64,000 nt of DNA from an uncultured Verrucomicrobiae bacterium (GCA_963762555.1 CAVXLO010000007.1:103640-167639); one strand, 5' to 3'. Positions 1 through 28,127 are shown, numbered from the stretch's first letter. Made by a program: numbers and translations. The notes: a model not told the origin generated them from the letters alone.

Positions 1-1228
1 GCGGGGCCGGGATTCGGGTCGGCCACGAGGGCCAGGATTCGCGCCGCGGGGGCCTGGCCGCGGAATTGGAGGGGGACGGCGGGCATGATTGAGCCGCGGG
101 CATTGGTGACCGTGGTGGACTCGAGGCCGCTGCCGGCGATGATGCCGGCGATGTGGGTGCCGTGGCCGTTGGCATCCACGCCGCCGCCCGGCGCATCGAA
201 CAGGACCCGGCCTTGCAGGTCAGGATGGTTCGCGTCCACACCGGAATCATTGACGTTGACGATGATATTGGTGCCGGTCAGGCCGAGGTAGTTCAGGGGC
301 GTGACGGTATCGGCGGCAACGGCGATGCGAGCGCGGCTCAAGTCATTGGCCAGCACGCGACGGTGGGTAAGCTCGATTTCCTGAACGCCGGGAAGGCCGG
401 CGAGCGCCGAGAGCATGGCACCGGCAGGCACCGCCGAAGATTGTCCTGGCCGCACTGTGAGCACCGGGCCAAAGGCAGACCTTTCTTCGCCGACCACCCG
501 CAGCCCGAGGCCGGTCAACTCCTTGCGCGCCGCGGTGCCGGCATCCGGGAAGAGCAACACGCTGAGCGCCTGGTCGTTCGGCAGGGGCTGTTGCTCGACC
601 GCCAGGGCCAGCAGCGGCCCCTTAAGCTTGAAGTACAGGCTCGTAGGGCACGACCGCCTGTGTCCCCGGTTCCGCCCCCAACCGTTCGGCGGCATCCTTC
701 GAAGCGCGGACCAGATAGGCCTGGTTGGGAATGTAGGCCACCACAACGGCCCCGGCGGCGCGCAGGCTGGCGCGAAACGCGTCATCGAGCGGCGCACGAG
801 ACTGAACGACGTAGGCGCCGGCATCGCCTTGAGCGCGCAGATGATCGGGGATCGCCAGGGCCACCGAGCGGCGTGGTGTCGAGCAGGGCGTTTTCGAGCA
901 GAAGGGCGGTAGGGCTATGGGCTAATTGGGCGAGAGGGGTGGTGGTATTGCTGAGGCGAAGAGCGAGGTCGGGCGTGACACTTGATGCGTGATGCGTAAT
1001 TGAAGCGGTGGCGGGCGCCGGGTTGGGGGTCGTGCCTTGACTCGGAAGCGGAACGGGCGACGGCAGACCGGCGCGTGATGACGGAGAGACACGGGACCAC
1101 GAATGAGGTTGCAGCAACGTGACGGTGCTCCGCTCGCCTGCCCACCTCTCCCCCATCCGCCAAACAAAGACGCCCGTGACCAAAAGCATCACGCTCATCA
1201 GTCGCCAGATCCAAGGCCGCGAGCGCAT
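1..1228 (-). CDS. S8 (subtilisin-like) serine peptidase, N-terminal part; runs off the window; paralog of the giant subtilase at 3235-13428
   Basis: N-terminus MRSRPWIWRLMSVMLLVTGVFVWRMGERW and segment LRLSNTTTPLAQLAHSPTALLLENALLDT match the 13428 protein; reverse strand of ~140-270 reads NIIVNVNDSGVDANHPDL (Asp motif) and DANGHGTHIAGIIAG (His motif); frameshifted. Confidence 0.88.
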
Positions 1229-1717: not shown

Positions 1718-2338
1718 TCAGCGGCGCTGATTACCCCGGCGGGCCGCCAGCAAGAAGCCGCCGAGACCCAGCAGCAGCCAGGAGGAGGGCTCGGGTACAC
1801 CGCCCGCGTCCTCGAAATTCGGGCCGACATACATCGAGCCGAACGTGCCGGACACTTCGGTGGGAAAGGTGAATCCGGCTGCGGAAACGGCCGTCGCACG
1901 CAAGGCAATGTCCGGCGACGCCGTAATGGTGCCTCCGGCGGCGACACCGGCCACGTTCACGCCCAGGGTGCCACTGGCGGAATAGACCCCCAGATGATAG
2001 ATCTGCGTCGGGTCCAGTGAAACCGGCGTGATGGATTCGTAGCGGCTCAGGTTAACCTGCGGACTGGTGGGGGTAATCACCTGAGAAGCCAGCAACACGC
2101 CGGTGTCATTCCATAAACCAACTTGGAGACTGGTCACGGTCGGGTTGTTGTCGAAGAGATTGGCAAAGCAACCCAGCTCGGTCGCCGTCAGGGTTGTAAC
2201 CGGCTGGAAGGTCCAGCCGGCGGTGGCGTTGACGAAGCTGCTGATGGAATTACCGTAGCCCAGGATGGCCTCGGTGGTGCCCTGAGCAAAAGTGGTCCAG
2301 GCCGCCCCGAGCGTCGCTAAAGCGAGCAGAATCTTCAT
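1718..2338 (-). CDS. PEP-CTERM sorting-domain protein with a small beta-rich (DUF4082-like) domain
   Basis: Signal peptide MKILLALATLGAAWTTFA; C-terminus VPEPSSWLLLGLGGFLLAARR (PEP motif, hydrophobic helix, basic tail). Confidence 0.9.
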   Translation of the reverse strand: MKILLALATLGAAWTTFAQGTTEAILGYGNSISSFVNATAGWTFQPVTTLTATELGCFANLFDNNPTVTSLQVGLWNDTGVLLASQVITPTSPQVNLSRYESITPVSLDPTQIYHLGVYSASGTLGVNVAGVAAGGTITASPDIALRATAVSAAGFTFPTEVSGTFGSMYVGPNFEDAGGVPEPSSWLLLGLGGFLLAARRGNQRR

Positions 2339-2408
2339 AGTTCCTTTCTGTTATTATTAACCCGCCCCAATTATGGCTTGGCACCCGCAGGTCTGCAAGT
2401 AAAAAACT

Positions 2409-3159
2409 CTACTGCACCAGGCGGTAATACTTCGGGCCGGACCCGATCGAGCCCAACGCTACGAACTCATCGCCCACGGTGCTCACCGAGAGGCCCGCAT
2501 CGGTCCATGTGCCGGTGAGCCCGACCTCCGATTGCAGGGTGTAGCCAGGATACGCGCGTGGGCCACGAGAGGCGGACCTGGTTGCCCGTGACAGAGCTCG
2601 ATGCTGAGCCTGGGCCGGGACTCGAACTGAAAGTTTGGGCCGGCATAAAACGAGCCGGACGTGCCAGATAATTCCGCAGGGGAGGCGAACCCGCCGCTGG
2701 CCAAGCGGCCATCGCGCGCAACTGCACCTCCGGCGCGCGTCCCGACCGTCCCTCCCGCCGCCAGCACCGGCCACACCGACACCGATGATGCCACCCGGGT
2801 AATAGACCCCGAGATGATAGATTTGGCCGGGGACCAGGCTGAGCCGGGTGATGGGTTCATAGCGGGTCTGGTCGAACAGAGCTGCTGGCCGGGGTGACGG
2901 ACGTGGAGGCCAGCAGCGCGCCGGTGTCATCCCACAACCCAACCTGGACGTGCCGTTACGCGCCGGGTTGTCGTCGAAGACTTTGGCGAAGCAGCCCAGT
3001 TCGGTCACGGTGAGGGCCCGGGTGGTCTGGAAAGTCCAGCCGGCCGTTGCGTCCACGAATCCGCTGATGTTGTTGGTGTAACCCAGGATGGCTTCCGAAG
3101 CCCCCTGGGCCAAGGCGTGCAGGTGCCGCCAGCACGGCTATCGAAAACAAGCACTTCAT
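2409..3159 (-). CDS. Secreted protein paralogous to 1718-2338 but ending in a ~65-aa YYRL domain instead of PEP-CTERM
   Basis: MKCLFSIAVLAA signal; AQGASEAILGYTNNISGFVDATAGWTFQ matches AQGTTEAILGYGNSISSFVNATAGWTFQ; tail QVRLSW..YPGYTLQSEVGLTGTWTDAG...GPKYYRLVQ; frameshifted. Confidence 0.85.
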
Positions 3160-3234
3160 AGTTTCTTCGGTGTTACTACACGCCGCGCATCGCAGTCCCA
3201 TGTTCCCGGGCGCGAGGCGCACGGGCGAAAAGTC

Positions 3235-6200
3235 TTACTTGATCAGCCGGTAGTATTTCGGTTCGGGGCCGATGGTGTCGAAGGCAACGTATTCATTGCC
3301 GACGAGGTTCACCGGGAGGCCGGCATCGGCCCACGTGCCAGTCAAGCCGATCTCGGATTGCAGGGTATAGCCGGGGTAAACGGTGGACCAGGAGAGCCGG
3401 ACCTGGTTGGTGGACCACAGCTCGATATGGAGCATGGGCCGGTCCGAGAACACCTGGACAACCTGGTAGAAGGCGGGGAGGTTGGGAACCGGCAGGACCT
3501 CAAAGGTTGTCAACGGCGTGGTGGCGACCACAAAACCGATGTTGGTCCAGACAATCGGAGTCGCGAGGCTGGCGGTGTATTGCACGAGGTAGCTCTCGCC
3601 CGCGACTGAGTTCCAACTCAGCAACAGCCCATGCGGCGCGCTGAGCGGGGTCTGCCTCATCGCCTGCGGTTGAGCGCTCAGGAGCAGACGGTCGCGGTTG
3701 GGCAGCACGGCCCGGATGGTGTAGGTGACGTTCGACAGCTCATTATTATAGACTCCCAGATACCAGTGACCGCGCAGGTCGGGCGTATCCCCGTTGGTCC
3801 GCACGACTATTTGCTCGGGCGTAGTGCCAACGGCGAAGCTGCCGTCGAAGTAAGGCGCCATGGTCGGGGGCACAGATTGCTGGAGCACAAGGTCGGCGTC
3901 CCCTGACAGGTTGTAGAGTTCAAACAGCACCCCGGGCACGGAATAGGGGACGAGGAAGTCGTAGAACAGCCGCCGCGGCGGGCCGGGCGGGGCGGCGAAC
4001 GGGCTGGTGAGCGAGGACACAGTGAAGGGGATCCCATTGGTTAGCGGGATGATCAATGGATAGGCCGTGTCCAAACAGGCTTGCACCGCGAATGGGACGT
4101 TGGTGGCAGTGCTGTTGAAGATCCCGATGTACCACCGGTTGGTCTGGATCGGGAACGGCGTCGAATTGGTCACCAGCATGACGATTTCATCATTCGTGCA
4201 GGGCTGCTGGCTGATGTAGTCGTAGTGGTTAAGGTCCGGCAGCGGCAGGTGCTGGCTCACCACCAGGGTCAGGTTGCTCCGGGCCCGTGAGAGCCAAAGC
4301 GAAACAGCCTGGGCCGGCAGGTCGGCCGGCTGCCCGTTGGTCGGGACATCGAACTGGAAGTAGCGCGGAATGCCGGCCGGTCCGACAAAGTTAGTAGTCA
4401 CCTGGCAGTTGGCCAGCGTCTGGATGTCAAACCAGACCCCCAGCGCAAAGGTCACACCCACCGGGTTGGGATTGGTCACCGCCAGATAATAAGGCTGGCC
4501 GTTAGTCAGCGCCGGCACGCCGTTGGTCGTGAGAATATTCGTGCCGCTCGGCACCAGCGGACCGATAAGCGCCTGGTCAGCCGGCCCGGGATAGTTGGTC
4601 TGGTTAAAGAGCACGGTGATGGGCAGAGGCGTGGTCGTGTGCCCCCGGTCGGCGAATTGCAGGACGTTGGTAGCCCGCGCAGCCCATTGCGGCACCGGCA
4701 CGACGAAGTACTGCACGCCGTAAGCCGCCAGCGAATTGGTGTAGGTAATGCCGTGGCTCAGGGTGATAACCGGCGGCGGGTTGCTGGGGGCGAGTTCGAA
4801 GTTCAGCTCCCAATCCAGCAGCGCCGCGTTGTTGGTGTCCAGTCCCACACGGTTGTCCCAGATTTCGAGCGTCCAGATGCCGTAGGTATCCTCGCCGTAG
4901 AGATCGGATAGCGGCACTTCCGGCAGATAGTACAGCTCGGGCGCCACCTCGGTCAGGGTGATGCCGTCCACGAGTGTGCCGGGCAAGAGACTCTGGAGCG
5001 TCACGACGGCGTTGGTGTCGAGAGCGGTGAACTCGACGGTGTGGAGGGTCCATTGCGAGTTATCCCCATACACATCGCCCAGCGATGCGCCGTCCACGTT
5101 GACATTCAGTTTGGCCAGGCTTTGGGCCGGCGGGGCGGCAAAGTCGGCCTTCCCGCTGCGGCCGGCGGCGGCGATAGCCGCGATCTCGGGGCCGGTCAGG
5201 GCGCGGGCGTAAGCGGTGACCTCGTCCATGAACCCGGCGAACGGCTGGGTCCAGTCAAAGCGGCTCCGGTCGCCGATGGCGACGCCCGGGCTGAGCGCCG
5301 GGTCGAGGTCCTGGTAAGGCGAGAGCCGGGTGTAATTGCTGGCGACGCACACGCCGTCCAGGTAAAGCCGCATGGCATTGGTGGTAAACGTAATAACGTT
5401 CGTCCCGTTGGTGCCGACCACAATGTTAGTGAACGGCTTGTCGAAAACCGCCGCGATGTGCCACCACCCGCCGTTGGAGCCTCCGCCGAGCTGGACGGGG
5501 GCGTTGGTCGTGAGGACGTCCGCCCCCAAGGTGCCCACGTGGGCATCGGCGATATGGAAGTGCAGGTCGTAGCGAGTCCGGACAGCCGACGGCTCCAGCG
5601 CCAGCCAATAAGGATCACCTGTGCCATTGCAGTTGAGCGGTTCCGGGTAGCCGCGGAAGAAGATTTGCTCTGTGCCCGCACACGGTTTCCTCGTTGGTGT
5701 TGAGGATCGGCTTGATCCAGCCTTCGATGGTAAAGGCATTGGTGAATTGGAGCTGCGGCGGGTCGCCGAGCTCGATCTTGCTGGAGGGATCGTCAATGTC
5801 CTCCGGGAAGATGTCCGGGTCCTGGTCCGGCGGAGGCTCGAACTGCCCGCTGAAGAAGAATCCCTGGTCGCCAACAAAGCCGGGCGCCGACGTATTGGTG
5901 GCGCCGTTGAGGAAGGCGCCGTTGTTGCCGCTGATGAGGTCCTGGGCGCGCTGGCTCAGCGGTTCGACGCGGCCATCCCACCAACCGACCGCGCACGGGC
6001 CGCGGAGGTTGTAGCTGAGTTGGTAGCGGTGGCCGGGAGCGGTGGGCAGGAGGCACTGCACGGCGCCCGTGGCCATCGCCAGGTAGTTCGTGGCGACCGC
6101 ATCGAAGAAGGCGTTGCTCACGACGGTGACCTGCCCCTGGCTGACGGTCCAGTCGCGGGTGCCGATACCCGGGCTGTTGGGCATGCCCGGGATCGTGCCG

Positions 6201-9200
6201 CCGACACTATAAAGCGCGGCAAAGCGGCGCCGAAGCCGTTCGAGAAGACGAGAACCGGCGGGAAGTTCGTGGCGGTGTAAGGCGTGGGCGCAAACTTGAT
6301 CGGCAGGGTCGCCAGGTTGGTGTCCTCCGTGAAATGCAGCAGGCCGTTGATGGAATTGGTCACCAGCGTCGAGAGCACGAAGTCATCCACCATCGCATTC
6401 AGGTTGTTGGGCGCGTTGGTATCGCCGCGCTGTATGGATCCAGTCCGCGGACGATAATGGGAGTCGCGTTGGTGGAGCTGGTGAACGAGATCGTGTTGGT
6501 TTCCCACTGCGGCCCGTTGTTGGTCCAGGTGAGGCCGTTGGTGAAGGTGAAGATCTGGGTCCCGGCAGTGGGATCGGAGAGGGTGACCTCGGTGGCCACC
6601 GGGCAGATCAGCACGTTGGTGCCGTATTTGCCCCGGCTGCCGGCATTGTAGATGGCATTGACCTCGCAGGGAGAGAGGGCGCGCTGATACACGCTGAACT
6701 CATCCAGGCCGCCGGTAAAAGAGGTGCCGAGCGTGGGGCCGCCGAAGGTCCAACTCAGGATATCCTGGTCTCGCAGTGCATTCGCCACTATACGAGCCCG
6801 AACCCAACCCAGCCGTAGCCGTTGCTGTCAGTGGCCATCTTGAGGCCCGGCAGCCAGACATTGGTAATCACTTGGATGCCGTCCAGCCATACGTTGAAGG
6901 CATCGCCGTCGTAGATGGCTCGGACGGTGTGGATGTTTCCATCCTTGAGTATAATCCCCTTGGAAGTCAAGTCCGTTTGCGGTCCCACATTAACGTTATT
7001 CGTCACGATGACGATGGAATTGCTTTTGTCGCCGGGCGGTGGGTTGCCCCTGCAATCGAGGAAGATGCTGACGTAGTTGACCCCGCCGGAGTAATTGCCA
7101 TAAGTGGTATCGGAAGTCGGTGAATCATTCTGCACAGTGAACCAGATTTCATCTCCACTACAGCCCGACGGCGACCCTCCCCAGGTTGGTCCACCGGCAC
7201 TGGTAGGTCGTAGTGAATCCAGAGGCGCAGTGTTGTTTAGCCTGGTACCACGCGTTCCCCCATACCTGGTAGGCCGCCGGCGCAAGCCGCAAAACGTTGC
7301 CGACCTGGGTAGCGGTCCCGATAAGATTCAGCCCGGCGACGGAACTGAAAGTCGGGGTAGTTAATCGGCGGCGGGCTGACGGTCGGGTCAAACCCAAGAT
7401 AGAAATCGCTGGAGGTGCGCGGAATGAAGTTGGTGGCGAACCGCATCGTGGCGGCCGCCTGGCCGTTAGTGTAGAGGACAGCCGTATTGTTATTGGTCGC
7501 GTAAGTCAGGGCGACGTGCTGCCAGCCGTCGTTGGTGATGACCATCGGCGGTGTCGCGATCACATGGGCCTGGCCATTGGTGTCCCAGAGGATTGCGCTG
7601 AGCGAGGCGAGGCCGTTGGTCAGGCCGACCCACAACTGGACACCCTTCGGGGAAACGTTGGTCGGGGCGGCAGAATCATACCATTCGGCCACCGGCTCGG
7701 CGGTGTTGGTGTCCGCGGGGTTGATCCACCCTTCGATGCTGAACCCGCGCCCTTGGCCCACATCCAGCGCGGGACAGCGCGGGCACGATCATGCGCGTGG
7801 CCACGCCGTCGCCGTAGAAGGCCTGGTTGACTTCGCCGGATTGGCCGGTCGTCAGTTTGGCATAGTCCACCGCCACATCCACCGGGGTCGCTCCCGCGCC
7901 CGCCGGAGCGAATTGGGCCAGAACAATCCGGAAACCCGAACTGAATGTCGCAGCCCCATGGCCGAAGGACGCACGCAGCCAACTCTGCTGCCATCATCGC
8001 TCAACAGCGATGCGCGCACCCCCTGGTTGGCCGGGGCGCTGAGCACCAGCCGATACCAGGTGTTGGTCTGGAAGGTGAACGGCAGCGAATAGTAGGCATT
8101 GTCAATGCTGCTCCCCGCCAACAGCGCCTGGGAAGCGCCGGTAGCGCTCACGAAGGGCGACACCATGTAGTAGCGATTGGTGTTGGCCGCGTCCAGAATC
8201 CAGAGTTCAAGGAAGCCGCCCGTGCTGACGCCGGCCCCCTGGTTCAGCGTGTTGAAGCGCACCTCGTAACGGAAGTCCTTGGCATGGAAGACGGTGGCCG
8301 AACTCCAGCCCTTGCGTGTGCCCCCATTGAGGGTGTTGGACAGACGCAAGATGGTGTTCGTGCCCAGCGCACCGAAGCTGTAACCGGGAGTGCCGGCGTA
8401 GGTCTCAAGCGGTGTCGCGGCGCCCCCGGTTCCAGCATTCGGCAACCCGGCCTGCCACATTGGATCCAGGGGTCCATCAAACCCGTCGGTGAACAGATTG
8501 GTGGCACCGGTCGAGAACGTCACATCCCCCAGCAGCAGCCCGTTCAGGCCGCCGAAGATGTCCGAACCGTCCACATCGAGCGGCCACCAGGTAACCATGC
8601 CCTCCAGCCACGGCAGATGATTGACCCGGTAGGTCAGCGTGTAGGGATTCGGGTTGGGGTACGAGAGCAGGTTGGTCGTTGGCAGCGAGTTGGAAACCGC
8701 GCCGCCCAGCAGACCCAGCACGTGGTTGCTCAAGCACAGGCAAGTGTAGTCGTCCAGCACATCCACGAAGTTGCTGAGCACCTCCAGCCCTGGAACGTCG
8801 TGCCGGGCGAGTAAAGCCCCACCGGGGCGTTATTGAAGTTGTTCGTATAAACCGGCGCCATGTTCGTCACCACCGCGAGATTAAACGTGCCGATGCCCAG
8901 GCCGTTGGTCGTCGCCGCCCCGCGGTTCTCGAACAGCAGAACGCGCGTCCCGTTCGGGCTGATGAGCGTGATCGCCAGGTCGGAAACGCGCGGGTCGTTG
9001 AGCAGCAGCCCCACATCCAGCGAGGAGATGATCGCATGAAGGTTGTTGGTCAGGTAGATATCGGTAACCGAGTCATCGAGCGATCGGCACGGGCGCCGGA
9101 ATGGCCTCGGACACCACCGGCCGGAGGGTGTTCCAAGGAGTAGCCGAAGATTGCCCGGATATTCACTTTGATTGCGTTGACCGGGTCCAGATTGCATGTA

Positions 9201-12200
9201 TGGACCCGGTACGTGCCAACCTGCAAGGGCGGCACATCGGTCAGGTCAATCGTCACCGCCCCGCCAATCTCGTTGGACACGACCGTGCTCTTGCACGGAC
9301 CTCCGCTGAGGGGGCACACGTCTATCGAGAAGTTAACGGGAGCCGAGGCGAACACCACCGTGGTGGTGATTGTCAAACTGGTCGCGTTCGGCGGCACGTC
9401 AAGGTAATCGTTGCGGCAGGCGCCGCCCAGGATGGTCGCCGTGACACCATTGCCCGTCAGGTCGGGTTGGCGTTCGAGGAAAATCCCCAGGCTGATGTTG
9501 GTGCCGACGTGATTGGTGGCATTATCCACCATACTCAGAAAATACGGACCGATCCCGTCCTTGCCGGCGAAACTCAGCAGACTGCCGGGGCCATCCACGT
9601 GCTGGACGTGCGGGTTGATCAGATTTGGCCCTGGCCCCACGTTTTTCTCGTCGCTGTCATCGTACACATAGCTCGTGTAGGTCTGACACGCCAGCGTGAT
9701 GGGATCGCTAATGCAGGTGTGGTTATTGAGCACGGCGAAATCCGACCCATGACTGAAGTTGCCCAGCAAGTCGCTGATCAACTCATGGTTGATGATGTTG
9801 GTCACGATGACCCGCCGCACCTTGATGTCTGGACACATTGATGCCAATGATGGTCGCAACCCCCGGCATCTGCGGCGACCCGTCCGGGATCGGCGCCATG
9901 GTCGGGATGCCGATCAGGTGAGACGCCCTGTTCGTCCATGTCCCCAAACGGGTTCCGGCTGAATACGCCCAGGATTGCGTACTCGGCGGCCTGCTGGTCT
10001 TCGGATTTCACGCCGACGTAATACACTCCCGCCGGCATGGCGTTGGAATAGACGATCGTCTCAGTGCCGCCGCGGCAGCAGCGACTTGCCGGCGGCGTTC
10101 ACCACTGCCGGATCGAGGTTCGTCAGCGCGGAATTGTTGGGGATGGTCGGCGGCGCGACATACAGGTCTATGTCCGCTTCCGGACGCGTCGCCAGGTCCG
10201 CGCTCGGCTCGAACACCCCCATGCGCGGCACCGACAGGTTCGTGGGCAGGAAGGTCAGGAACGCGGCATTCGTGTAGTCCGTGTCGTTGGTAATGACGTA
10301 GAAATGCCATTGGTTGGTCACGCCCAGGGTGACCACGCCGTTGGCGTCATTGGCCAGTGTGAGGGTATTGGTGCCCAGCAATTGCGGGTTGGCGCCCGAC
10401 TCGCTGGTTGAACAGTATGCCGCCGGAGTAGCCCGGGGAATTGACAAAGCTGTTGGTGATGACCGTGACCAACGTCACATTGCTGGAAACGATCGGCGCG
10501 CTGCTGTCCAACGATAATGGCATTGGTCACCAGCCCATCGCCGCTGGAGATCACCAGCGCGTAATCCTGGCAGATGTTGTTGGTTTGCGCCGTGACCGCG
10601 TTGACGTTCACCCGCCGGGCCACAACGGTCACCGAATAATTGGTGCTCAGCCGGGAATTGATGCCCAGCGTCGGCGAGAGGAAGACGTTCTCGACGTTGT
10701 TCACCACATCCTCGTTGGGCACCGTGTTGGTATCCCAGGGCCTGGTTGAAGTCGTTGCCGGCCGCGATGTCGTTGCCGAAATAGACCAGGTTCGTGTTGT
10801 CGAGGTTGGTGACCACCAAATCCAGGTCGTTGACCAGCTTGACGCTGGCGATGGGATTGCCGGGCGGGTCGGTCCAGACCAGCGTGAAGCGCAGCGGCTG
10901 GCTCGGCGCGCCCGCGGACGAGGGATACCTTGTAGGTGCGGCTTTGGCCCGGTGGCCAGCGCATTGGTCGGGCTCTGGTCCACCATGACCATCGAATTGG
11001 TCGCTCGCTGTTGTTGGTCAGCGAACCCGGCAGCGTCGCGGGCAGATTGATCACACCCCAGCCCTGGGAAATAACGTCGGCGGTTGTGTGAAAATCATAG
11101 AGGTTGCCCACCGAGCGGGCGCCGTTGATCAACAGCGCCTTCATGAGCGCGGGGCTGTTGGTGCGGCCCAGGCGCTGCTCGAAGAACTCCTGCATCAGGG
11201 CGAGCGTGCCCGAGACATCGGCGGCCGCCATGCTCGTGCCCGATTCATAGCGATAATACGGCCCGAGCGAGTCGTTGATCACCGCCCAGCACCTGGAGGT
11301 AGTTGCCCAGGTCGTTGGTGACCACAATATCGGTCAATAGATCGCATACCACATCCCGGTTGGTAGGGTTGCCGATGCCGTAATACCAGTATGCGTTAAC
11401 CGGGTCGAGGGTGCTGTAATCGCCATCCGGCGGCACAAAAACCTCGTTGGTGCCAACAATGGGATCGGTATTGGTCGGGTAGCCCGTTGGCTGCACATAG
11501 ATTGGGCACTTGGGGAACGGGACCGGCGAATTCGTGTTCGGCAGCAGTTGCAGGTGAAGCTGGACAGCGTTGGCCGGCACGAAGATCGAGTCCAGGTACA
11601 GCATGTTCGTGGGAATGATGATGTCCCGATACAGGAAGTAGTGGTGGCTGGTGGGGTTGTAATAGGCGTTGGTATCCCACTGCCCCGAACGCGTGGAGAT
11701 GACGAAAGTGCCGGGCGCCACCACGTCGGGCTTGAACCGGCCATGGTCGCCCTCGATGCCGACCCCCACTGGACCGCGGCTGGAGAAGCTGGCGACCTGG
11801 TCGTTGGCGTCCGTCATGGCCAGCCACGGCTGGTTGGTGCTGCAGTTGGTCGTCGCACCCAGAGTCGGGCACTTCCACACCTGGTTGGTGATGTTGCGCA
11901 GCAGTTCAATCGCCCCCACCGTAATGACATTCTTGGCCGTGCCCGGTGACTCGATCGAGTCCGGGTTGCCCGCGGTGCCGTTATCGGTTCCCCCGCCCGC
12001 ATTGCCCGCCGACACCACCACCAGCAGCGGCTGCGAGCCGGGCACCGTCGGCAGCGCGTCGCGCACCGCGGCATCATAGCTGGCGGCATGAATATCGTAC
12101 GTCTGGGAATCCGGGCCGACGTAGTTCCAGCTATTGTTGGAAATGAAGGCGTTGGTCCGGGCCGCCGCCTGCTGCAGATCGCCGTCGGAGGGCCAACTCA

Positions 12201-13428
12201 GAGTCTGCCCCACCGAGAACGGCCCGGTCAACATCCCGATCGGCACGGAAAAGAGTGTCGCGGCGGGAGCCATGCCGCGAAATTCGGTGTTGGTCCCGGC
12301 ATACGGACCCGAGGGACCCGAGGCATTAGTCACCGTCAAGGATTCACCCCCGCTGCTGGCAATGATGCCGGCGACGTGCGTGCCGTGGCCGTTGGTATCT
12401 GTCAGGGCATTGGTCGAATCGCCAATGACCCGCGGGCTCAGGTCCGGGTGCGTCGCATCCACCCCCGAGTCGTTGATGTTCACCAGCACATTGGTGCCGG
12501 TCAAGCCGAGGTAGTTCGTCGTGGTGACCGTGTCGAGCGAAACCCCCACCCGCACGCGGCTGAAATCGTTCGCCGGCACCCTCATCAGGGTCCATTCCAC
12601 TTCCTGCACTCCGGGCAACCCCGCGACCGCCGCCAAACCATCCGCCGGCGGAACCACCCGCAGCACCGAGCCGAACGGGGAGCTTTGTTCATCCCCGAGG
12701 ATGCGCGCGCCCTGCTTTTCCAAAGCCGCGCGCGTCGCCGCGCTCGCATCGGCAAAGAGCAGCACGTTGAGCGCGCTGTTGTCCGGGAAGGGCGTTTGCG
12801 CCATCGCCAGTTTCAGCAAAGAAGGCTTCAGCTTGTAATAGGGTTCATACGGCAAAACCGCCTGCACGCGCGGCCCGGCCGCCAATCCTTGCGCCACCGC
12901 CGCCGAAGCGCGCACCAAATAGGCGTTGTTGGGGATATAGGAAACGATCGTCGCCCCGGCGGCTTGCAGCACCGAGCGGAAGGCATTGTCAATCGGCCCG
13001 CGCGCTTGGACCAGGTAACTGCCGGGATCGCCGTGGGCGCGCAGGTTCTCGGGGATGGCCGGCGCCGGCTGCGTGGTGTCGAGCAACGCGTTCTCGAGCA
13101 AAAGGGCGCTATCGCTATGCTCCAACTGGCGGAGCGGGGCAGCCGTGTTACTCAGGCGCAGGGCGAACCGGTTGGTGACGCTCGAGGTGTGATTCGTGAC
13201 GGAATAGGTGGTCGGCGATGAATTGAGGTTGCCCGCCTGGGTCAGAAGTCGGAAGGGTGACGGCGGGACGGACTGTGCTGCATCAGGCGCGGAGTGTGGA
13301 GCGTGGCCCGGAGGGGAGGAGGCAGCGTGTTCCCGGGCCGCCCATCGGTCCCCCAACCGCCAGAAATAGAAGGCGCCCACAAAGCACAATACGCTTACAA
13401 AAAGCCAGATCAGAGATCGGAGACGCAT
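3235..13428 (-). CDS. Giant (~3,400 aa) multidomain S8 subtilase with PPC-like, P (proprotein convertase)-like, LamG, legume-lectin-like domains and C-terminal YYRL domain
   Basis: Catalytic motifs NINDSGVDATHPDL, TNGHGTHVAGIIAS, YESGTSMAAADVSG; oxyanion region VVSAGNAG; KPDVVAPGT; LamG motifs FSIEGWINP, WQHVALTY, LDEFSVYQRALS, MDEVTAYARALT; a chain of overlapping minus-strand ORF fragments joined by frameshifts. Confidence 0.85.
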
Positions 13429-13570
13429 AAACAGGAATAGTTAAACTGGGTGACAGAACTATAGCAACAGGGGACAGAGCAACGACCGCGCGCTGGGCGG
13501 GCTGCGTGCCGCTTGGAGCACTGGGGAATGCTAGAACAGGCGCACTTCGGCCGCCGCTGGCGGCTCGTAG

Positions 13571-13968
13571 CGCGAAGCGTTTGGAGTGCGCCGTATCCCG
13601 ACTGCACCTTGCACGCAATTCCGCGCTCGGCGGCATGTTGTTCCGCAACCCCGCTAGGGGTGACCTGTTTGTAGGAACCGGCGCCCGTGATGATGCTCCC
13701 AAACCCCGTCAGGGGTGACCTGCTCCTGGGTTGCGTTGCGCATGGCCCGCCAGCCCGCTGACAGGTCACCCCTGACGGGGTTTGGGAAGCCTTGGGCGTT
13801 CGGAGCTCTATAAACAGGTCACCCCTAGCGGGGTTTACCAGCGACGCCCGCAGAAGCTGGTATATGGCAGAAACTCGTGTAAGGTGCTGGTACCCCGGCG
13901 CTTTGGCACTCGCAACACCCCTGGCCATCCAAAAGCGCCAGGATACGGCGCACTCCAAATGCTTCGCG
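13571..13968. repeat. Composite nested palindromic element (REP/BIME- or MITE-like)
   Basis: Outer 28-nt inverted repeat CGCGAAGCGTTTGGAGTGCGCCGTATCC / GGATACGGCGCACTCCAAATGCTTCGCG; inner pairs ACCCCGCTAGGGGTGACCTGTTT with its reverse complement, and AAACCCCGTCAGGGGTGACCTG with its reverse complement. Confidence 0.85.
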
Positions 13969-14456
13969 CCTTCGGGTGCGGCTGTGCCGCGCGGCTCTGA
14001 CCGCAACTGGATGCCCGATGGCCGATGGCCAACCGCCGTCCCGGCATTACCCTGGTTTTGGTCTGTTGCTGCTTTCATGTGGGTTTCGGGGCTGCCCGGC
14101 TTGACGATGTTAGGGTGGCGGGCCGCAGGCGATCGGCTTTCGCCCCGGCACCCATGAATGGCTCGGAAACAAGGCAGGCCAAAGCACACCACATATAGGG
14201 GCAAGGACACCTGGAGAACCACCAGGGGTAGTTCTCTGGGGGACGCTTTTGGCATCCCGGGCCTCAGATCGCAACGGTTGGGCTCGCCGCTGGGTTTGCG
14301 TCCAACGATGCGAATGGCACCGACGAAGAGCCGCCCCCCGCGGACGCCTCGGTCCACCCTCCGCAGTGCTGCTACGGAGGACGGGCGACGCGTCGCCACC
14401 AACCATTGGCGAATGCGCTCGTTACACGAGCGGCCCCCGCCGTCGGCGTTTGCAAC

Positions 14457-14525
14457 GATGTAACCCATGTAACCCATTTAACTCATGTAACTCATGTAAC
14501 CGAAGTAACCCATGTAACCCATGTA
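14457..14525. repeat. 9-nt tandem repeat (TAACCCATG)n, degenerate
   Basis: About 7 copies directly downstream of the stop of the PilX/GspK-like gene. Confidence 0.85.
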
Positions 14526-14538
14526 GCTTCTCTGAACC

Positions 14539-17500
14539 CTAATCCGGCGGCAGCACCGTGAAACTCTCAACCACAGGATAGAGGTTGGTGATCGCCGGCG
14601 GTGGGCCGAAAGCTGAATAGGGCCGGACCCCATCGAGGCGAACCACGGTGCGGGTGGCCGATTCGGCCACGATCTGATAGTTCGTGCAAAGCCGGTAATC
14701 CGCTCGAAACAATCGAGTGGGGCGCGGGCTTGAGGGTCTGGCCAAAGGCGTAAATCACGAATCGTGGCGTATGGTCGCACTTCAATAGCCCCAGAATCTG
14801 CTGCGGCAGCCGTTCGTAGGCCTCGTCGTTCAGGCCGTTGTTGCAAATAGCTCGGCGTGCCGATGCGGTTCAGGAAAGGCGAAGCGGTCGTCAACTCCGG
14901 CACGGCCAGGATGTCACCCAGATGGCTGAATTCATGTCGGATGTTATTGGTGGCGCGAACATCATTGATGCGTTTGACGAGTTGGACCAGCGGCGGCCAG
15001 GTGCTGGGGTCGTATGGGTCATAGATGCCGGCGGGTTGGATCACCTCGGGCTGCAGGACCGGGTTCTCGTTGGGATCATTGGTGAGCGCGATGACGCCGC
15101 TCAGCAGGGCCGACCAAGCGGCGAGATTGGTCTGGTTGATGGACATCTGGCCGCGCGTGGCATTGTCGCTCAGGGCGGTCGTAAACAGGTCCAAAATGCG
15201 CCAGTCATTTGTCGGCTGCGTAAAGCGCGCGTCGGTGTCTATGCCAATGAGTGTTCTTGGGACATAAAGCGGCATCACATTCGTGGTAAACTGGCCCAGA
15301 TTCGTCACGAGTTGACCATCGCCGCTCCACTGCTGCCAATTATGCAGCCAGATAGGGTAATTCGTCCCCGCAAATGACTTCAAATACACGGTCTGCCAGG
15401 GCGTGCCGCGATGGACGCGGCCCAGCCAGCCAATGTTCGGGAACTTGTTCGTTGGGAAATCCCAATTATCAGACAGGAGCATCAACGGGTCTTTGACGGT
15501 GAGGTCATATAAGACCGGGCTGGAGCTATGGGCGCCGCCCCCGCCCCACGGCTCATAACGCAAATTGACCTGGCCAAGATTGTCGGTGGGCTTGGGGTCG
15601 GCGACATCTACTGAAAGGTTGGTATGCACCAGGTCCATCAAGTCTCCGACGGTGTAATGCACCAACGGGTCATTCGCCTGCCACGAGGTGAGCATGTAGA
15701 TGTTTCGGGACGGTTGGAAAGGGGCATTGAAGGTGTTGGAGGTCTGCAGGTAACCCGGCTGGAACTGGCCCTTGAAGAAGGTGATGGCGGCTTATTATGC
15801 TCATGCCCGGCGGGAATTCCTGGGTTGAGGGGTTCCAGTCCGGCGAGGTGTGACCCATACTGGCCTCAATCTGGTTTTGGATGCCGTAGGTTGCGACATT
15901 GTCGGACGTCGAGTTGTTCATGCGGTTGGTGCACCACATACTGCCATTGCTGCCGCTGGATGTGTAGGGATCACCACATTGTCCGCCGTCCATGAGGGCT
16001 GCGTTGACATCCAGATCCTGTTCGGAAGCCAGGTTCACATAGTCAATGATCCGGTTCGCGGCTTTATCAATGATGGCGACCCGGACCCGCGGTTTCAACG
16101 TGACCCGCCAATGCGGCAGGTAAAAATTTGTGACTCCAGCTTTCCGTTCAAAGGTGCCGGTTAACGGGATAAAGTCCTTACCCGCCTGCGAATATGTGCT
16201 GTTTGGGAGAAACACCCAATTGGTCATCATTGGAATCCGAAAAGAGGTACTGCGGGAACGATGGATCGAACCTGGACCACGTATGGGCTGGAATGTCCAT
16301 TGGGACTTGTGAGGGCAGACGGTATCTCTGTATCAGAGGAGGGGGGTTGAGCCACGTGCCGTCGTCAGCATTGGTGATCACGACACTGACGTCGGGCCAG
16401 GCTACTACTTGGACGTCGTTGGAAAATGGAGTGCCGTAAGAATTCCAAGCCTCGGCGCCCAACACATTGGAAATACCAAGGATATACATCTCATCAATCT
16501 CATTCACCGGTGCGGTTGTGGAAGTCCCTGGCCGGTGAAATTGGAGTTTGCGCGTCACCTGCACGGTCGTCTGCATGGCGAACTCGTTGAAATTAGGCAG
16601 GCCCTTCTTGGCGCCGATGATCAGCGGAATGCCATAGACCATGTCGGAAGCTCTGCTGTCAAAGGCAGCGAAATCCCCCGGCTCGGAGAGATCGCGCACA
16701 TTGTCATATTTAGAAACGAGGTTATAGGTTTCCGCAGGGGTGACCTCGTGATAGCCGACGATGAAGATCGGATTGTTGCCGTTCTTGTCGCTGAACTCGG
16801 GGCGGAATACCGTCGGCAGGTAAGCGGTATCATTCCCAACAACATAGTCCAGACGGTTCGTCGTGGCGTCATACATGTTGGCCGCAAGCTGCAAGAGACG
16901 GTTCACGCTTGGGGTATAATAGTTGGTAGGCCAAACCTGGATATGCAGATTGGTCACGAGCACCCCGCCGACGTAATTTGTGACCAGCACGCTTGCGGCA
17001 TAGTTGGCATTCCCAGGCGCGTAGCCGGCGTTCGCCAGCAGCCGGATGGCGGCATTGGTGAAGAACAGGGCCGGCTGCCAGGGAATGAAATTGGTCTCCA
17101 TGTTCGGCACCACGTAGCCATTGTCATCCACATTGCGATAATTGAGATTCATCTTGCCGCCGGGCTCGGGGGCGGAATCGGTGCCGAGTTGGGAGAGGAG
17201 GCGGTAGAAGGTATTGCGGTCGTAAGAATCGAGTTGGTTGCCAGCGGCGACCAGACGATCTGAAAAGCTGGGGATATTGGGGCCAAGCTGTGAGGGGCGG
17301 GTCTTGGACTGGTCGAACAAATCCTGCGTGGTGTAAAAGCGGTTGGGATTAGGTGCCCCGGGCCAGGACAAGTTCACCCGGGAGTTGTAGCTGTCGGGGT
17401 CGCCGAGGCCCGCCGGCCATGCTGTGCCGAGCATCACGGGTCCGCCGGAATAGTCGTCAATAAAGTCCCCCTGGAACGTGCTGGGTCCGTTCGTAAAGAG

Positions 17501-18600
17501 AAGCCCGGCGCTAGCAAGCGAATTCCACCTGCCTCCGTAACGGTAACCCAGCAGCGCAGCCGCATCGTCAAAGGCATGTCCCGTGTTGGGTCCCGGGAAC
17601 GGGTTATCGGCTGCCGTGTAGGGATTGTAATTGTAGTTGTTGCCGACATACCAGAAGTTCGTGTTCAGGTCTGCCAGAAAGGCCGCGAGGTTGATTTCTG
17701 CCGTAAGCGCGCCCTGGTTTCGCAGGAAGCCATCAGAGGGTCTGCTGAGGTCCTGGTGCTTCGCGTCATTGTAAATGTTGTTGATGTCGAGGGTCTGGCC
17801 CACTGGCACAGCGATGTAAGCGTAGCGGGAAATGAACGGGTTGTCGGCGGAGCAGCCAAATTCCGGATAGCGCAGGACACCGATCCATTCCGGGTCGCCC
17901 ACGAAGTAATTGCTCAGCGTGTTGCCCTCCTCGGGTTGTGCTATCTCCTTCCCGGTCAGGTCGTAGTAGCCGCCCAGTGGATTGATCACCGGCTGTAACC
18001 CGCTCGGGTCATCCCGCCCGTTGCGATTCAGGTCGAGGTAGAAGCGGAATTCGTTCGAGTTGGCAAAGAGGGCGTTGGTGATAAACACCGGGGGGCGCGG
18101 GTCGTAGAGGAGGTTGGCAATGTTTTGCTCCCAATCCAACGCGCTGAACCGCAACCTGTTCGCCTTGAAATCAAAATTGACGTTGGTCGGGTTGTTGTCC
18201 CCGCTGACGAATCCATACGGGTTGATATAATTGGTAGAAACGGACAACCCGTAATTGAACTCGTTGGTCCAACCGATCATGGGGCCGATGAACTGGGCGA
18301 TGGCGCGCTCGCGGGCGGTATCCGCTGCCAGCCGGGCGGTGGCTCGGTCGGTTTCAGTGGTGACGGAGCCGTGCGGCTGCGGCTGATCACCAGGAACGCG
18401 ACCGCCATGAAAGTGATGACCGAGAGCAGCAGCAGAGTGATGACGAGGGCGACGGCACGTTCGGAGGGATGCGTGAGGCGTGATGCGTGATCCGTGATGC
18501 GTGATCCGTGATGCGTGATGCGTGAAACGTGGGGCATGGGACGCGATGCTGGCTTCAGCATTCCGCATTCTGCATTCTGCATTCTACATTCTGTCTTCAT
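14539..18600 (-). CDS. Large PilX/GspK-like minor pilin (Verru_Chthon cassette protein A-like), ~1,350 aa
   Basis: Leader then ERA/VALVITLLLLSVITFMAVAFLVISR with no Glu5, typical of PilX/GspK; GKMNLNY and GQMSINQTNLAAWSALLSG motifs; C-terminal RFVIYAFGQTLKP; start overlaps the upstream stop; frameshifted. Confidence 0.8.
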
Positions 18601-19928
18601 TGGTAGCCAAGGGGATCAACATTGCGAATGGCGATGCGCTGGCGGAACAGGTGGACGCGGCTGGCAACCTCCGGGCGCTGGAGATAAGCCAGCCGGGCGG
18701 GGCCGCTGTCAATCGAGTTGTACCTTTCCCACGCATGTTGTTCGAGGATGCCGAACTCCATCTCGACATTGGCTGGCAGCGCGTTGCTGTAGAAATACAG
18801 GCCGGTCAGGTTGTCCGGGTAGGCCGTGTTCGGCACCGTGAAGGCCTGCCGGAGCGGGGTCTCGATCAGGTAAGTCGCACCGCCGATGTTGGTCCGGATG
18901 TTGAACCAGGCGAACGTCGAGGACCCGGTGCTGAAAATGGGGTAGCCGTTGGTCGCGAAGGCGCGGAAGCGGAAGTCTATCACACCGTCGCAGATTCGGT
19001 TCGACAGACTCACTGAGGCGGGTGAGCCGGGGAAGCACGCCGCCCGGAACGCCCGATAGAGTTGGGTCGGGTCCGAAGGGAGGCCGTCGGACTGGACGAC
19101 GTTGGTCGAGGCGTAAAAGCGATAGAGGCTGCCCACACCCATCTGGTTCGGGGCGCAGTCGGGTAGCCAGGTGAGCCCGTCCGCACTGTTCGTGCGCACG
19201 GCGTAGCCGATCCCGACCCAGGTCTGGTTCTGCCGCAGCAGCATGAAGCAGTCTTCCAGCACATTGGTCCGGAAAACCGTCGTGCCAGGCAACGCCTGGG
19301 TCAAGGGGATCGAAGAGGGCACTTGGACGCAGAAGTTGAACCCGTAGGTATATTGAGGATACGGGTAGCCCGCAGGCACCATCTGTTCGAGTTCGCGCGG
19401 GAGCATCTCGGTGACCGCTCGCCCGGCCTCCAGCCGGTCCACCTGGTTCATGCTGCTGCGGAAGGCGCGCTGCACCTGGTTAAACATGGCGAACAAGCCC
19501 AAAACGATGAAGCTGAGCAGGGCAATGGTGACGAGAATTTCGACCAGGGTGAACCCGGCGCGGCGCGACGCCGGTTGCCCGGCCGGCCTGCCTGTACCGC
19601 AGAGCGGCAAAGCCGCAACCGAATTGCGCGGAGCTCGCTCCCGCTCTAGCAGGGCAGCCCGGACCGTTTCAAAGCGCCAGCAGGCTCCACGCCTCATGCG
19701 GATCTCCATCGGCCCGGTGTGCTGCCCGGACCCGCGAGCCTGTTCCCCCTCACCCCAGCCCTCTCCTCGGGGAGAGGGAGAACACTCGCCAGCCTGGCGG
19801 CGAATCCGGCGCGCCTGGACGTTTCGGGAGCAAGACTCCGCGGCACCCTCTCCCCGGGGAGAGGGCCGGGGTGAGGGGGAACCGGGCGCTTGTTGCCTGC
19901 ACGCTTGAACTGGAAATGCCGTATTCAC
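18597..19928 (-). CDS. PilW/GspJ-like minor pilin (Verru_Chthon C-like); true start may be further downstream (~19700)
   Basis: Prepilin motif RRAG/FTLVEILVTIALLSFIVLGLFAMFNQVQRAFR; C-terminal LPANVEMEFGIL. Confidence 0.85.
   Translation of the reverse strand: MNTAFPVQACRQQAPGSPSPRPSPRGEGAAESCSRNVQARRIRRQAGECSPSPRGEGWGEGEQARGSGQHTGPMEIRMRRGACWRFETVRAALLERERAPRNSVAALPLCGTGRPAGQPASRRAGFTLVEILVTIALLSFIVLGLFAMFNQVQRAFRSSMNQVDRLEAGRAVTEMLPRELEQMVPAGYPYPQYTYGFNFCVQVPSSIPLTQALPGTTVFRTNVLEDCFMLLRQNQTWVGIGYAVRTNSADGLTWLPDCAPNQMGVGSLYRFYASTNVVQSDGLPSDPTQLYRAFRAACFPGSPASVSLSNRICDGVIDFRFRAFATNGYPIFSTGSSTFAWFNIRTNIGGATYLIETPLRQAFTVPNTAYPDNLTGLYFYSNALPANVEMEFGILEQHAWERYNSIDSGPARLAYLQRPEVASRVHLFRQRIAIRNVDPLGYQ
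19742..19881. repeat. REP-like palindrome family CCCTCACCCCRGCCCTCTCC..GGGAGAGGG, copy 1
   Basis: Two inverted units; further copies at 45365-45504, 47732-47873, 58510-58650. Confidence 0.88.
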
Positions 19929-19988
19929 GAGGCTTTCATTTCATCTGGCTTTGAGGTTTGAAGTAATAGGGCGCATTCAAGGGCGCGG

Positions 19989-20888
19989 TCAGAAGCCTGT
20001 AGGTGAGTTGGTGAACGTTCCGGGTTGGAAGAAATAGAGGTTGTAGCCCAAGTCATCCCTCACCTGGAGCGAACCGCCAACCAGGGTGCGAAAGGACTGG
20101 CCGCCCTGTCCAAGCATTCCCCGGGATCTCAGGGGCCACCGGAAGGTGAGGCGCAAATCGTGCAGGTTGGCCGCCATGTTTCTGGCCGCGATCCACTGGT
20201 TCAAGCCGGTTGCGTACTCCACCGTGTTGGTCGCATAAAAGGTGTAGTTGGTCCAGCTCGGGTCGTAATAGTTCGTCCCACAGGGAACGACCTCCGAGGT
20301 CATGCGATAGCTGAAGGCGAAGTCCTGCACGTCCGGGCTGTTTTGCGGGAACTTTTCGCTGGCCGGGCCGCTCATCGAGCGGACGTAGGCCGCGACGTGG
20401 TTGCGAACGACATCGCCGTTCTCTAAAGTAACGTACTTGGGAGTGGACAGGAGCCCCACGATGCGAAAACCGTTGACCAACGGAAACGAATTGGGCCCAG
20501 AAGGAGCCGTCGGCGTGTACCAATTCGTCCAAGTCTGAACCACGCTCGTCATGTCAGATTTGTACTCGGTCACATAATTGGTGATCGCCATGACATAGTT
20601 CGTGAGGTCATCCAGGCCCTCGGCGCCGTTGCGGAGGGCGTTCATCCAAACCGTGGCGTCCTGGTTGATGACGGTCTGCTCGCGGTTGTCCTTCTGCACG
20701 TTCATGCCGATGGGCAGGACGCCGATGATCGCAACCAGCGCAAAGCCGATGATGGCCAGGCTGATGGCGATTTCGATCATGGTGAAAGCCGAGGTGAAAC
20801 GTGATGCGTGATGCGTGACGCGTGATGCGTGATCCGTGATGCGTGATTCCGCATTCTGCATTCTGCATTCTACATTCTGCATTCTCAT
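19989..20888 (-). CDS. PilV/GspI-like minor pilin (Verru_Chthon B-like)
   Basis: SA/FTMIEIAISLAIIGFALVAIIGVLPIGMNVQKDNREQTVINQ; intact ORF. Confidence 0.88.
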   Translation of the reverse strand: MRMQNVECRMQNAESRITDHASRVTHHASRFTSAFTMIEIAISLAIIGFALVAIIGVLPIGMNVQKDNREQTVINQDATVWMNALRNGAEGLDDLTNYVMAITNYVTEYKSDMTSVVQTWTNWYTPTAPSGPNSFPLVNGFRIVGLLSTPKYVTLENGDVVRNHVAAYVRSMSGPASEKFPQNSPDVQDFAFSYRMTSEVVPCGTNYYDPSWTNYTFYATNTVEYATGLNQWIAARNMAANLHDLRLTFRWPLRSRGMLGQGGQSFRTLVGGSLQVRDDLGYNLYFFQPGTFTNSPTGF

Positions 20889-21870
20889 TGCACGCTCCTG
20901 TGCTCGACACGGGCACGGCCTGTCAGGCGGTCAATCTAGACCAGGCTGTAGTTGTCGGTGGTGTTGCCGGGCGGCCGCTCGATGACCTGGGCCGTCTGCC
21001 GGGGGTCTGATTTGCCGTAGCTGACGCTGCCCTCGGTGACCGGGATCAGCTCCGGCTGGCCGCTGACGCCGGATACCAGCGAGCCCATACCATCAAAGGC
21101 GATGTAAGGCAGGGCGACATAAGGCCGCGTTGGGGAAGCCGGCAGGGTTGTCTCGGAAGGGAACGGCACATTGGTGGTGTAATTGAAGCCGAAAACCTGG
21201 TAGGCGAGCACCCCGTTGGTGTAGATGTTGAGCACCGGCGTCGGGTTGGCAGGATTAAAAGGGGTGAACTTTTGCAGCGAGATATAGGCGCCTTGGGGAA
21301 AGGTCCGCCAGGAGGACAAATAGCGGGGCGTGTGGACAGCCGGTTGGTCGCCCACGCTCCGCAGGCAGACATAGGCGTATGCCATCAGTTGCTTGGTGTA
21401 CAGGTTGTCGCCACGCTCTTATCGTCGGCGGTCCAGGCACTAAAGTTGTAAGCAGGATCGTTCCAAAAGTTGGTGGGCAGGAAAACCATATAGACGGTCG
21501 TGCGCTGGCTGAGGGCGAGTTGGCGGGCGCGCCCCACCGCATCGAGCAACTCCCGCGTGGTGGCCACCTTGGCGTTGGGCTTAAGCCCCCGCAGCGTCGG
21601 CAACGCAAGGGCGGCCAGAATCCCCATGATGGCGATGACCATCAGCAACTCGAGGAGGGTGAAGGCCACCAGCCCGGGGCGAACGAGGAAATTCGAGGCG
21701 CGATGTGGAACATCGGCCATTGGATGTTGGATGTTGGATGTTGGATGTTGGATGTTGATCTCTGAACACTGGATGCGGCCTCTCACCTCCGGGCGGGCTG
21801 CTGCCGGGACCCAGGCGGCGGCTGGGCCGGCAAAAGATTCCGGCTTCGCTATTAATCGGTGGGTCTTCAC
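20885..21870 (-). CDS. FimU/GspH-like minor pilin (Verru_Chthon D-like)
   Basis: VA/FTLLELLMVIAIMGILAALALP...LLDAVGRARQLALSQRTTVYMVF; tail IDRLTGRARV; one frameshift near 21390 and an in-frame TAG at 20936-20938; stop overlaps next ATG. Confidence 0.82.
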
Positions 21871-21875
21871 AGGCG

Positions 21876-28121: not shown

Positions 28122-28127
28122 ACGCGG

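Follow-up and report, generated by a model that had tools for sequence, protein, structure and literature searches.

Why would one and the same passenger domain be carried by two neighbouring proteins that end differently? The question is raised by a stretch of DNA from an uncultured, soil-type Verrucomicrobiae bacterium (GCA_963762555.1 CAVXLO010000007.1:103640-167639). The stretch is 64,000 nucleotides long, was analysed as a whole and is referred to here as the window. Near its start lie two adjacent paralogous genes. Paralog 1 ends in a PEP-CTERM sorting signal, and paralog 2 ends in a domain of about 70 amino acids, named here the YYRL tail, which closely resembles the end of a giant protease encoded by the gene directly upstream. 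An original prediction, made from the sequence alone, had proposed that this tail is an export or surface-attachment signal. The features concerned are the following.

1718-2338, minus strand: paralog 1, an intact gene for 206 amino acids in a single open reading frame (ORF), with a signal peptide, a DUF4082-like jelly roll and PEP-CTERM
1721-1801, minus strand: PEP-CTERM sorting signal of paralog 1 (VPEP, hydrophobic helix and basic end), with Pfam and NCBIfam matches at residues 181-201
2409-3159, minus strand: paralog 2, with a signal peptide, the same passenger and a YYRL tail, in three frames as assembled
2412-2623, minus strand: YYRL tail of paralog 2, about 70 amino acids, the last 49 of which (2412-2558) lie in a single frame
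3235-13440, minus strand: giant secreted subtilase (S8 family) that carries a P-domain and LamG domains, in many ORFs as assembled because of frameshifts
3238-3453, minus strand: terminal YYRL tail of the giant protease, 72 amino acids, followed by the stop codon at 3235-3237 (translation and profile match)

When paralog 1 was compared by phmmer with all six-frame ORFs of the genome, the only matches were paralog 1 itself, paralog 2 (E 2.4e-29) and a second frame of paralog 2. The mean column identity of the two paralogs at the DNA level was 76%. The end of paralog 2 matched the C-terminal 71 residues of the giant protease with an E value of 1.1e-18 and 69% identity over residues 23-70. The two tails were 84% identical in DNA, and the next-closest tail in the genome was 37% identical to that of paralog 2. 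Because of the passenger match and the tail match, the observation is real and lies far beyond chance. The claims that the adjacent paralogs share a passenger and that one of them ends in PEP-CTERM were thus borne out. As for the tail of the other paralog, its likeness to the end of the giant protease stood, but the motifs that had been quoted for it sit in three frames.

Paralog 1 has a signal-peptide-like N-terminus in translation. Its PEP-CTERM end scored above both curated cut-offs, with 25.7 bits for PF07589 (cut-off 20.7) and 23.1 bits for TIGR02595 (cut-off 16). The passenger gave 17.8 bits with PF13313 (DUF4082), which is under the gathering cut-off of 28.4, and many of its 120 homologues have a precomputed PF13313 match. 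An exosortase gene (PF09721, 145.9 bits) was found in the same genome, G000, at G000:C11:56815-57573.

The passenger alternates between the two anchors, as the original prediction had it, and does so beyond this locus as well. Among the 120 homologues of paralog 1, 103 end in PEP-CTERM and 12 in the tail; five are fragments or have unclear ends. The 12 tail forms are about 247 amino acids long and end in KYYRL plus two residues. In the slot between two giant proteases, the tail form alone is present in L064 and the PEP-CTERM form alone in L065, both of which are Verrucomicrobia metagenome-assembled genomes (MAGs), and the window has both forms. A passenger tree was built from 111 sequences, after ten rows with fragments or unclear ends had been left out and one L064 row added. 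It placed 13 tail forms in a group of 26 rows together with 13 PEP-CTERM forms, paralog 1 being one of the latter, and required at least two anchor changes. The tail forms are 56-96% identical to the L064 form. The anchor swap is real and has been kept in intact genes elsewhere.

The tails of the small tail forms are 56-69% identical to that of the giant protease, compared with 19-35% for the other 35 aligned tails, so that capture of the 3' end of the upstream gene is the simplest history. A small DUF4082-like jelly-roll protein, ancestrally with PEP-CTERM, would have gained a copy of the tail from the protease gene directly upstream, and both the PEP-CTERM form and the tail form would have been kept after the capture. 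Two database proteins, P0193 (a tail form of 251 amino acids) and P0194 (a PEP-CTERM form of 206 amino acids), come from the same source with a longest contig of 4,928 bases each. The adjacent pair may therefore exist in another metagenome too.

Further swaps were found within the same genome. It has 28 PEP-CTERM-like ORF ends, and four of these proteins (paralog 1 and one each from contigs C11, C17 and C31) have passenger homologues among the tail ORFs. For the C31 and C17 versus C52 pairs, the common domain abuts the anchor in both partners, and Pfam confirmed PEP-CTERM on the C17 and C31 proteins. The C11 pair (G000:C11:77902-82434) is a second case of neighbouring genes. There a PEP-CTERM-like protein of 282 amino acids is encoded 1.3 kb upstream of a LamG/Ig tail protein of 799 amino acids, and the passenger of the smaller protein aligns over its whole length with residues 404-620 of the larger one (E 2.9e-19). 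The PEP-CTERM-like end of the 282-residue protein was not reported by Pfam at E<=0.01.

As assembled, the homologous text of paralog 2 is spread over all three frames. A frameshift-aware alignment with the intact orthologue P0173 needed nine frame corrections, gave 163 identical residues of 247 and ran through without a stop codon. The frame breaks are most likely assembly errors, and at least part of the broken frame is such an error. This is because conserved genes are split in the same way throughout the window (Lon, HflX, GlnD, three ATPase genes of the type II secretion system (T2SS-E), T2SS-F, an AAA ATPase and two sulfatases), because the marker completeness of the assembly is 66.8% (7.76 Mb in 54 contigs), because intact 247-amino-acid forms are known in 12 database protein clusters and in L064, and because a contig from a public run is one G shorter at 2556. 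Public reads gave one run with the stretch (0.07 share of words), covering 2424-2555 by a 132-base piece that is 99% alike, and a further 35-base piece with five mismatches. The missing G falls at one of the nine junctions, the one that independent data cover, and without it the frame of paralog 2 continues as in the orthologues. The giant protease, similarly, is one frame of more than 2,733 amino acids in the related record L064.

Between 24900 and 63000 of the window, conserved genes appear as two to four overlapping ORFs in different frames. Examples are Lon (36442-39557), HflX (50684-51923), the sulfatases (43759-47013) and the T2SS-E genes (26450-31082). Since small indels are pervasive in this assembly, any claim of a pseudogene or frameshift in this genome calls for independent reads.

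Compared by eye, the tails of paralog 2 (2412-2558) and of the giant protease (3238-3384) share a lineage-specific stretch S-E-x-G-L-T-G-T-W-x-D-A-G-L, which is missing in the orthologous pair of L064. The C-terminal halves of the same two tails, in contrast, are gene-specific in pattern. Such a mosaic would point to gene conversion between these neighbours.

The YYRL tail belongs to a large family. An iterative profile search of all six-frame ORFs of the genome rose from 4 to 180 matches, and the tail ended within 10 amino acids of the stop codon in 91 of 101 matches at round 3 and in 159 of 180 at round 5. With a profile made from 36 aligned tails, 111 matches were obtained in 109 ORFs of the genome; 102 of them ended within 10 amino acids of the stop and 100 within five. 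In the giant protease the profile match lies at 841-904 of a 906-residue frame, two amino acids before the stop. The rough consensus reads P.L......V.LSWP....GF.LQ.S..L....W..V.......G......FYRL. Among the 36 aligned tails W22 is invariant, and W41, F67, R69 and L70 are conserved at 90% or more. Two to four residues follow F-Y-R-L in 82 of 95 tails from this genome and in 121 of 138 database tails, and Pro closes the chain in 48 of 95 and 60 of 138, respectively.

No family was consistently matched when the 36 tails were compared with Pfam and NCBIfam, and no description of the tail was found in the literature, which was searched at title and abstract level. In the ESM Atlas, only unnamed Verrucomicrobiota clusters matched. 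No known ligand-binding family was matched by the 36 tails, and the original prediction was not refuted on this count. Against 1.84 billion representative proteins, the tail profile found 36,318 at E<=0.001, 11,902 at E<=1e-10 and 93 at E<=1e-30.

The position of the tail was checked in the database proteins as well. In 140 of the 150 best of these, a set biased to multi-copy carriers since scores add up, the last copy ended within 10 amino acids of the C-terminus, and the copies (2-12) mostly formed one tandem array reaching the C-terminus. The complete, single-contig genome G247 of the same order had 25 of its 30 best tails within 10 amino acids of the stop. Three of the other five were clearly non-terminal (L082, L084 and L088). 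One stands straight after a signal peptide and ahead of an enzyme-like domain in a protein of 319 amino acids, one behind a membrane or signal segment in a protein of 571 amino acids, and one is flanked by two other domains in a protein of 815 amino acids. Because these three G247 copies are N-terminal or internal, the position rule is strong but not absolute. Of the strictly C-terminal position that the original prediction had named as a check, the strong terminal bias stood and the strictness did not; mostly internal copies, which would have refuted the prediction, were not what was found.

In one of the alignments, MAFFT placed free-standing tails onto the DUF4082-like passenger, pairing GWTFQ/VGLW/YHLG with G[FY]TLQ/W/FYRL. 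Judged from these patterns, the likeness of passenger and tail is probably a chance resemblance between beta-sandwiches.

In a further check named with the original prediction, the tail was found together with signal peptides. A signal-peptide-like N-terminus was present in 46 of 106 tail proteins and in 17 of 522 internal-Met controls. The 106 proteins are those of the best 150 that start with Met and have at least 150 amino acids, many of those without a signal being fragments from short contigs. A different heuristic did not discriminate on ORFs of the genome itself, where it passed 49 of 139 with a tail and 186 of 600 controls, and the test on database N-termini only was used instead.

A Pfam scan of 42 tail proteins found S8, cadherin/Big_9, DUF11, SBBP and LVIVD propellers, RCC1, FG-GAP and LamG domains, as well as lipases, an apiosidase-like glycosidase, a caspase domain and PATR repeats. 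To judge from these domains, the passengers look typical of surface or exo-proteins. The scan placed no family on the tails themselves; an fn3 match in P0063 lies elsewhere than its tails. The best-scoring tails are on small proteins of 160-190 amino acids, in which a signal peptide and an N-terminal domain of about 60 amino acids are followed by one to six tails. That N-terminal domain has a Y-S-I-D-W..[SL]-[IL]-D-G-G-G motif and no Pfam match. Such small carriers are found at G000:C52:162565-162783, C46:198888-199109 and C34:214214-214435, on C49 and C10, and among the database proteins as P0001 and P0004. On contig C37 of G204, four tail matches in such small proteins lie inside 15 kb.

The tail was detected in all 61 sampled genomes of the order (G000 included, each of a different genus), with 1-89 tails per genome among the matches listed, and in 44 of 201 genomes of a phylum sample that also includes G000. 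The tail is a very large uncatalogued family, found at the end of Sec-exported proteins, singly or in arrays, in Verrucomicrobia and chiefly in this order.

What kind of domain is the tail? The AlphaFold2 model of the terminal tail of the giant protease, made with a 36-row alignment, had a predicted local distance difference test score (pLDDT) of 93.6 and six to seven strands. Foldseek with this model gave no match at E<=0.001, the best being fibronectin type III (FN3) domains at an E value of about 0.03 (best 0.026). In a VIA structure search the best Z score was 7.3, a middling score, for FN3 domains of cytokine receptors; FN3 domains of titin and contactins also matched, and the glucan-binding domains CBM56 and GNBP3 were among the matches at Z 5-6. 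According to the model, the tail is predicted to be a confidently folded, FN3-like beta-sandwich of about 65-72 amino acids. FN3 itself has about 85-90 amino acids. In several single-domain targets, 14-20 C-terminal residues were left unaligned to the tail, and because of this the modelled tail may be an FN3 that ends before the last strand. The core Trp and the late Tyr of the tail stand at positions that fit strands B and F of FN3. None of the 36 tails matches Pfam fn3 (PF00041), and the chain stops 2-4 residues past the FYRL strand.

Against PDB sequences the tail profile matched 54 of the 137 residues of CBM32 modules that bind chitosan, a partial match with 24.5 bits and an E value of 2.7e-4. 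Tail and module share the local pattern V.L.W ... [FY].[LI]Q.S ... W..V (PDB 4zy9, 2rv9 and 4zxe). A model of the full-length tail form of L064 (pLDDT 88.1) had a jelly-roll passenger and a separate tail. In the model, the passenger came nearest to PHR domains and viral jelly rolls, with nothing specific among them.

With these properties in hand, we tentatively favour the reading that the tail serves as a non-covalent cell-surface retention module, which would bind a component of the envelope or matrix. It would then serve as an alternative means of anchoring, in place of exosortase/PEP-CTERM, and would not be a signal for translocation that is first recognised and then removed. Tandem arrays and the few N-terminal or internal copies are the reason for preferring a retention module to a pure translocation signal. 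Retention is also favoured because the tail alternates with a surface sorting signal and sits on exported proteins, because it seems able to work from the other end of a protein, and because it has near-invariant residues of exposed type. Like SLH, GW and similar modules, which anchor proteins non-covalently at the cell surface in terminal arrays, the tail is terminal and tandem, is found on many unrelated exoproteins and occasionally stands at the other protein end. The tail differs from these modules in that its host has an envelope of the Gram-negative type. The tail and PEP-CTERM (PF07589, TIGR02595; exosortase EpsH, PF09721) have common passengers, and both mark Sec-exported proteins. PEP-CTERM, however, is a short motif with a membrane helix and a basic end that is handled by exosortase, whereas the tail, with about 70 amino acids, folds as a soluble domain and has no membrane segment.

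Several points weigh against a retention module. The tight C-terminal spacing and the frequent terminal Pro would equally suit a recognised C-terminal signal. The structural matches of the tail are generic, and the sole sequence hint of glycan binding is the partial CBM32 match. The swap in the paralog family may, on the passenger tree, have been a single event. None of the 109 ORFs carries both anchors, and this is near the chance expectation given about 28 PEP-CTERM proteins.

It seems less likely, in our view, that the tail works as a genuine signal for sorting or secretion, that is, a functional analogue of the C-terminal domain of the type IX secretion system (T9SS). Such a signal would be read by a dedicated outer-membrane machine and possibly cleaved, with the protein becoming attached. 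Like the type A C-terminal domain of T9SS (Por_Secre_tail, PF18962/TIGR04183, Bacteroidota), the tail is a small C-terminal beta-sandwich on many unrelated surface or secreted proteins with signal peptides, and both have dozens to hundreds of carriers per genome in one bacterial lineage. The extreme C-terminal position of 83-93% of the copies, the spacing of 2-4 residues after the motif with its terminal Pro, and the replacement of a known sorting signal by the tail all fit such a role. So do the roughly 100 cargo-like signal-peptide proteins per genome and the distribution of the tail, which keeps to one lineage and takes in every sampled genome of the order (61 of 61). However, the tail is neither always single-copy nor always terminal. 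Arrays reach 12 copies, and some copies directly follow the signal peptide or lie mid-protein, which T9SS tails are not known to do. None of the 36 tails matched PF18962 or the NCBIfam T9SS models, TIGR04183 included, at E<=1, and the genome itself gave no PF18962 match. The T9SS markers PF14349 (SprA_N) and PF11751 (PorP_SprF) were not found in the genome either, a search in which the control genomes were likewise silent and the assembly is frameshifted and 66.8% marker-complete. No candidate machine emerged. The protein encoded beside the pilin genes of the window, described below, was not found by a single-protein query in the 43 tail-positive genomes outside the order.

A more specific form of this idea can be put forward as a speculation, and we regard it as doubtful. 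Verrucomicrobia would have an as yet undiscovered pathway for export across, or attachment to, the outer membrane, of the T9SS kind but independently evolved, and the tail would be its address tag. The exposed last strand, F-Y-R-L-x-x-P, would be read by strand pairing and about 100 proteins per cell would be brought to the surface, with PEP-CTERM/exosortase as an interchangeable route.

We likewise consider it rather improbable that the tail is a passive FN3-like spacer or a module for folding and stability, whose C-terminal bias would come from easy capture of 3' ends and duplication. The generic Ig/FN3 fold, the arrays, which are like other bacterial Ig-like stalks, the occasional internal copies and the tail of paralog 2, which is plainly copied from the 3' end of its neighbour, would all be expected of such a module. 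Random placement of a 70-amino-acid domain, though, would make it terminal in a few percent of cases, compared with 83-93% observed. W41 and R69, which are of surface type, would hardly be near-invariant, nor would the trailing length be constrained. The tail forms have also stayed intact while diverging (56-96% identity to the L064 form), and the tail substitutes for a sorting signal in four passenger families.

It is quite unlikely that the tail is a carbohydrate-binding module for substrates in the environment and not for the cell's own surface. The partial CBM32 match, the presence of CBM56 and GNBP3 among the structural matches, and the carriers that are glycosidases or have CBM96 speak for substrate binding. 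The carriers are mostly proteases, adhesin-like repeat proteins, propellers and lipases, and not carbohydrate-active enzymes; no Pfam CBM family is consistently found on the 36 tails, and antibodies match the tail structurally just as well. The tail also differs from CBM32/discoidin domains (F5_F8_type_C) in that the match covers 54 of 137 residues, the fold is predicted to be a small FN3/Ig-like sandwich, and no Pfam match was obtained.

Finally, paralog 2 could be a decayed pseudogene and the swap without function in this organism, given that about 750 bases need nine frame corrections, a higher density than most genes nearby show, and that one junction only was checked against independent data; this is very improbable, however, in view of a corrected path that is free of stops and 66% identical to the intact orthologue, the likewise split Lon, HflX, GlnD, T2SS, AAA ATPase and sulfatase genes, the marker completeness, the 99%-alike contig without the extra G, and the intact orthologues in 12 clusters and L064.

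Verrucomicrobia are plentiful in soils and waters and secrete a wealth of enzymes. At title and abstract level, the literature gave no account of how their proteins are placed on or beyond the outer membrane. New here are the syntenic swap with PEP-CTERM, in which either form or both are present, and the further swaps within one genome, together with the negative profile test described below and the proof that some tail copies are non-terminal. A tail on about 100 exported proteins per genome and in 36,318 clusters, with no Pfam or NCBIfam entry, is a large annotation gap. The swap of PEP-CTERM and tail at one chromosomal slot, where one passenger has two ends, offers a clean and testable handle. 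If the tail is an anchor or an address tag, the surface proteome of a whole order would become predictable, and there would be a pointer to the partner that reads the tail.

The other features that surround the two paralogs and the giant protease are as follows.

3-1228, minus strand: start of a second giant S8 protease, which runs off the window (Peptidase_S8 in 3-914)
3454-3660, minus strand: divergent penultimate tail-like copy in the giant protease, ending in FYQVVQ (weak profile matches, i-E 0.3-0.48)
13413-18583, minus strand: large protein without a known family, in fragments, upstream of the giant protease
18600-22898, minus strand: pseudopilin genes (N_methyl and T2SSG matches), followed by T2SS F and E genes to about 31082

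The pilin-like genes of the window match NCBIfam by their prepilin N-termini only and fall far below the Verru_Chthon cut-offs, so that they do not count as a cassette of that type (TIGR02596, 26.6 against 256.5 bits; TIGR02598, 17.3 against 51.4; TIGR02599, 32.2 against 70). Between the pseudopilin genes and the giant protease, the ORF at 16181-18583 (801 amino acids) belongs to a protein of 1,200-1,400 amino acids, which had no Pfam or NCBIfam match. This pilin-adjacent protein was present in 58 of the 61 genomes of the order, including all 45 of high quality, mostly in single copy. Elsewhere in the phylum sample it was found in none of 200 genomes, of which 43 bear tails, although a single-protein query may miss distant relatives. 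A phylogenetic profile against the pilin cassette, which the original prediction had proposed as a check, thus did not tie the cassette to the tails, and the cassette was rejected as general tail machinery on account of the 43 tail-positive genomes outside the order. Since the pilin-adjacent protein was not found outside the order despite the tails there, it seems to be linked to the locus of the giant protease and not to tails generally. Possibly it is a component, specific to this lineage, of a T2SS-like or pilus apparatus. The order of genes is kept in G247, where pseudopilins, the pilin-adjacent protein (G247:C1, about 1082194-1085943) and a tail protein of 2,570 amino acids follow one another. 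The N-terminus of that tail protein is like those of the window proteases.

In the giant protease itself, Peptidase_S8 was matched at 11248-13440 and 10704-11333, P_proprotein at 8733-9245 and Laminin_G_3 at 7240-7788. The N-terminus of the second giant protease is like that of its counterpart in L064 and L065, and this counterpart closes with a different tail subtype. The penultimate tail-like copy of the giant protease has the same arrangement in L064 and L065.

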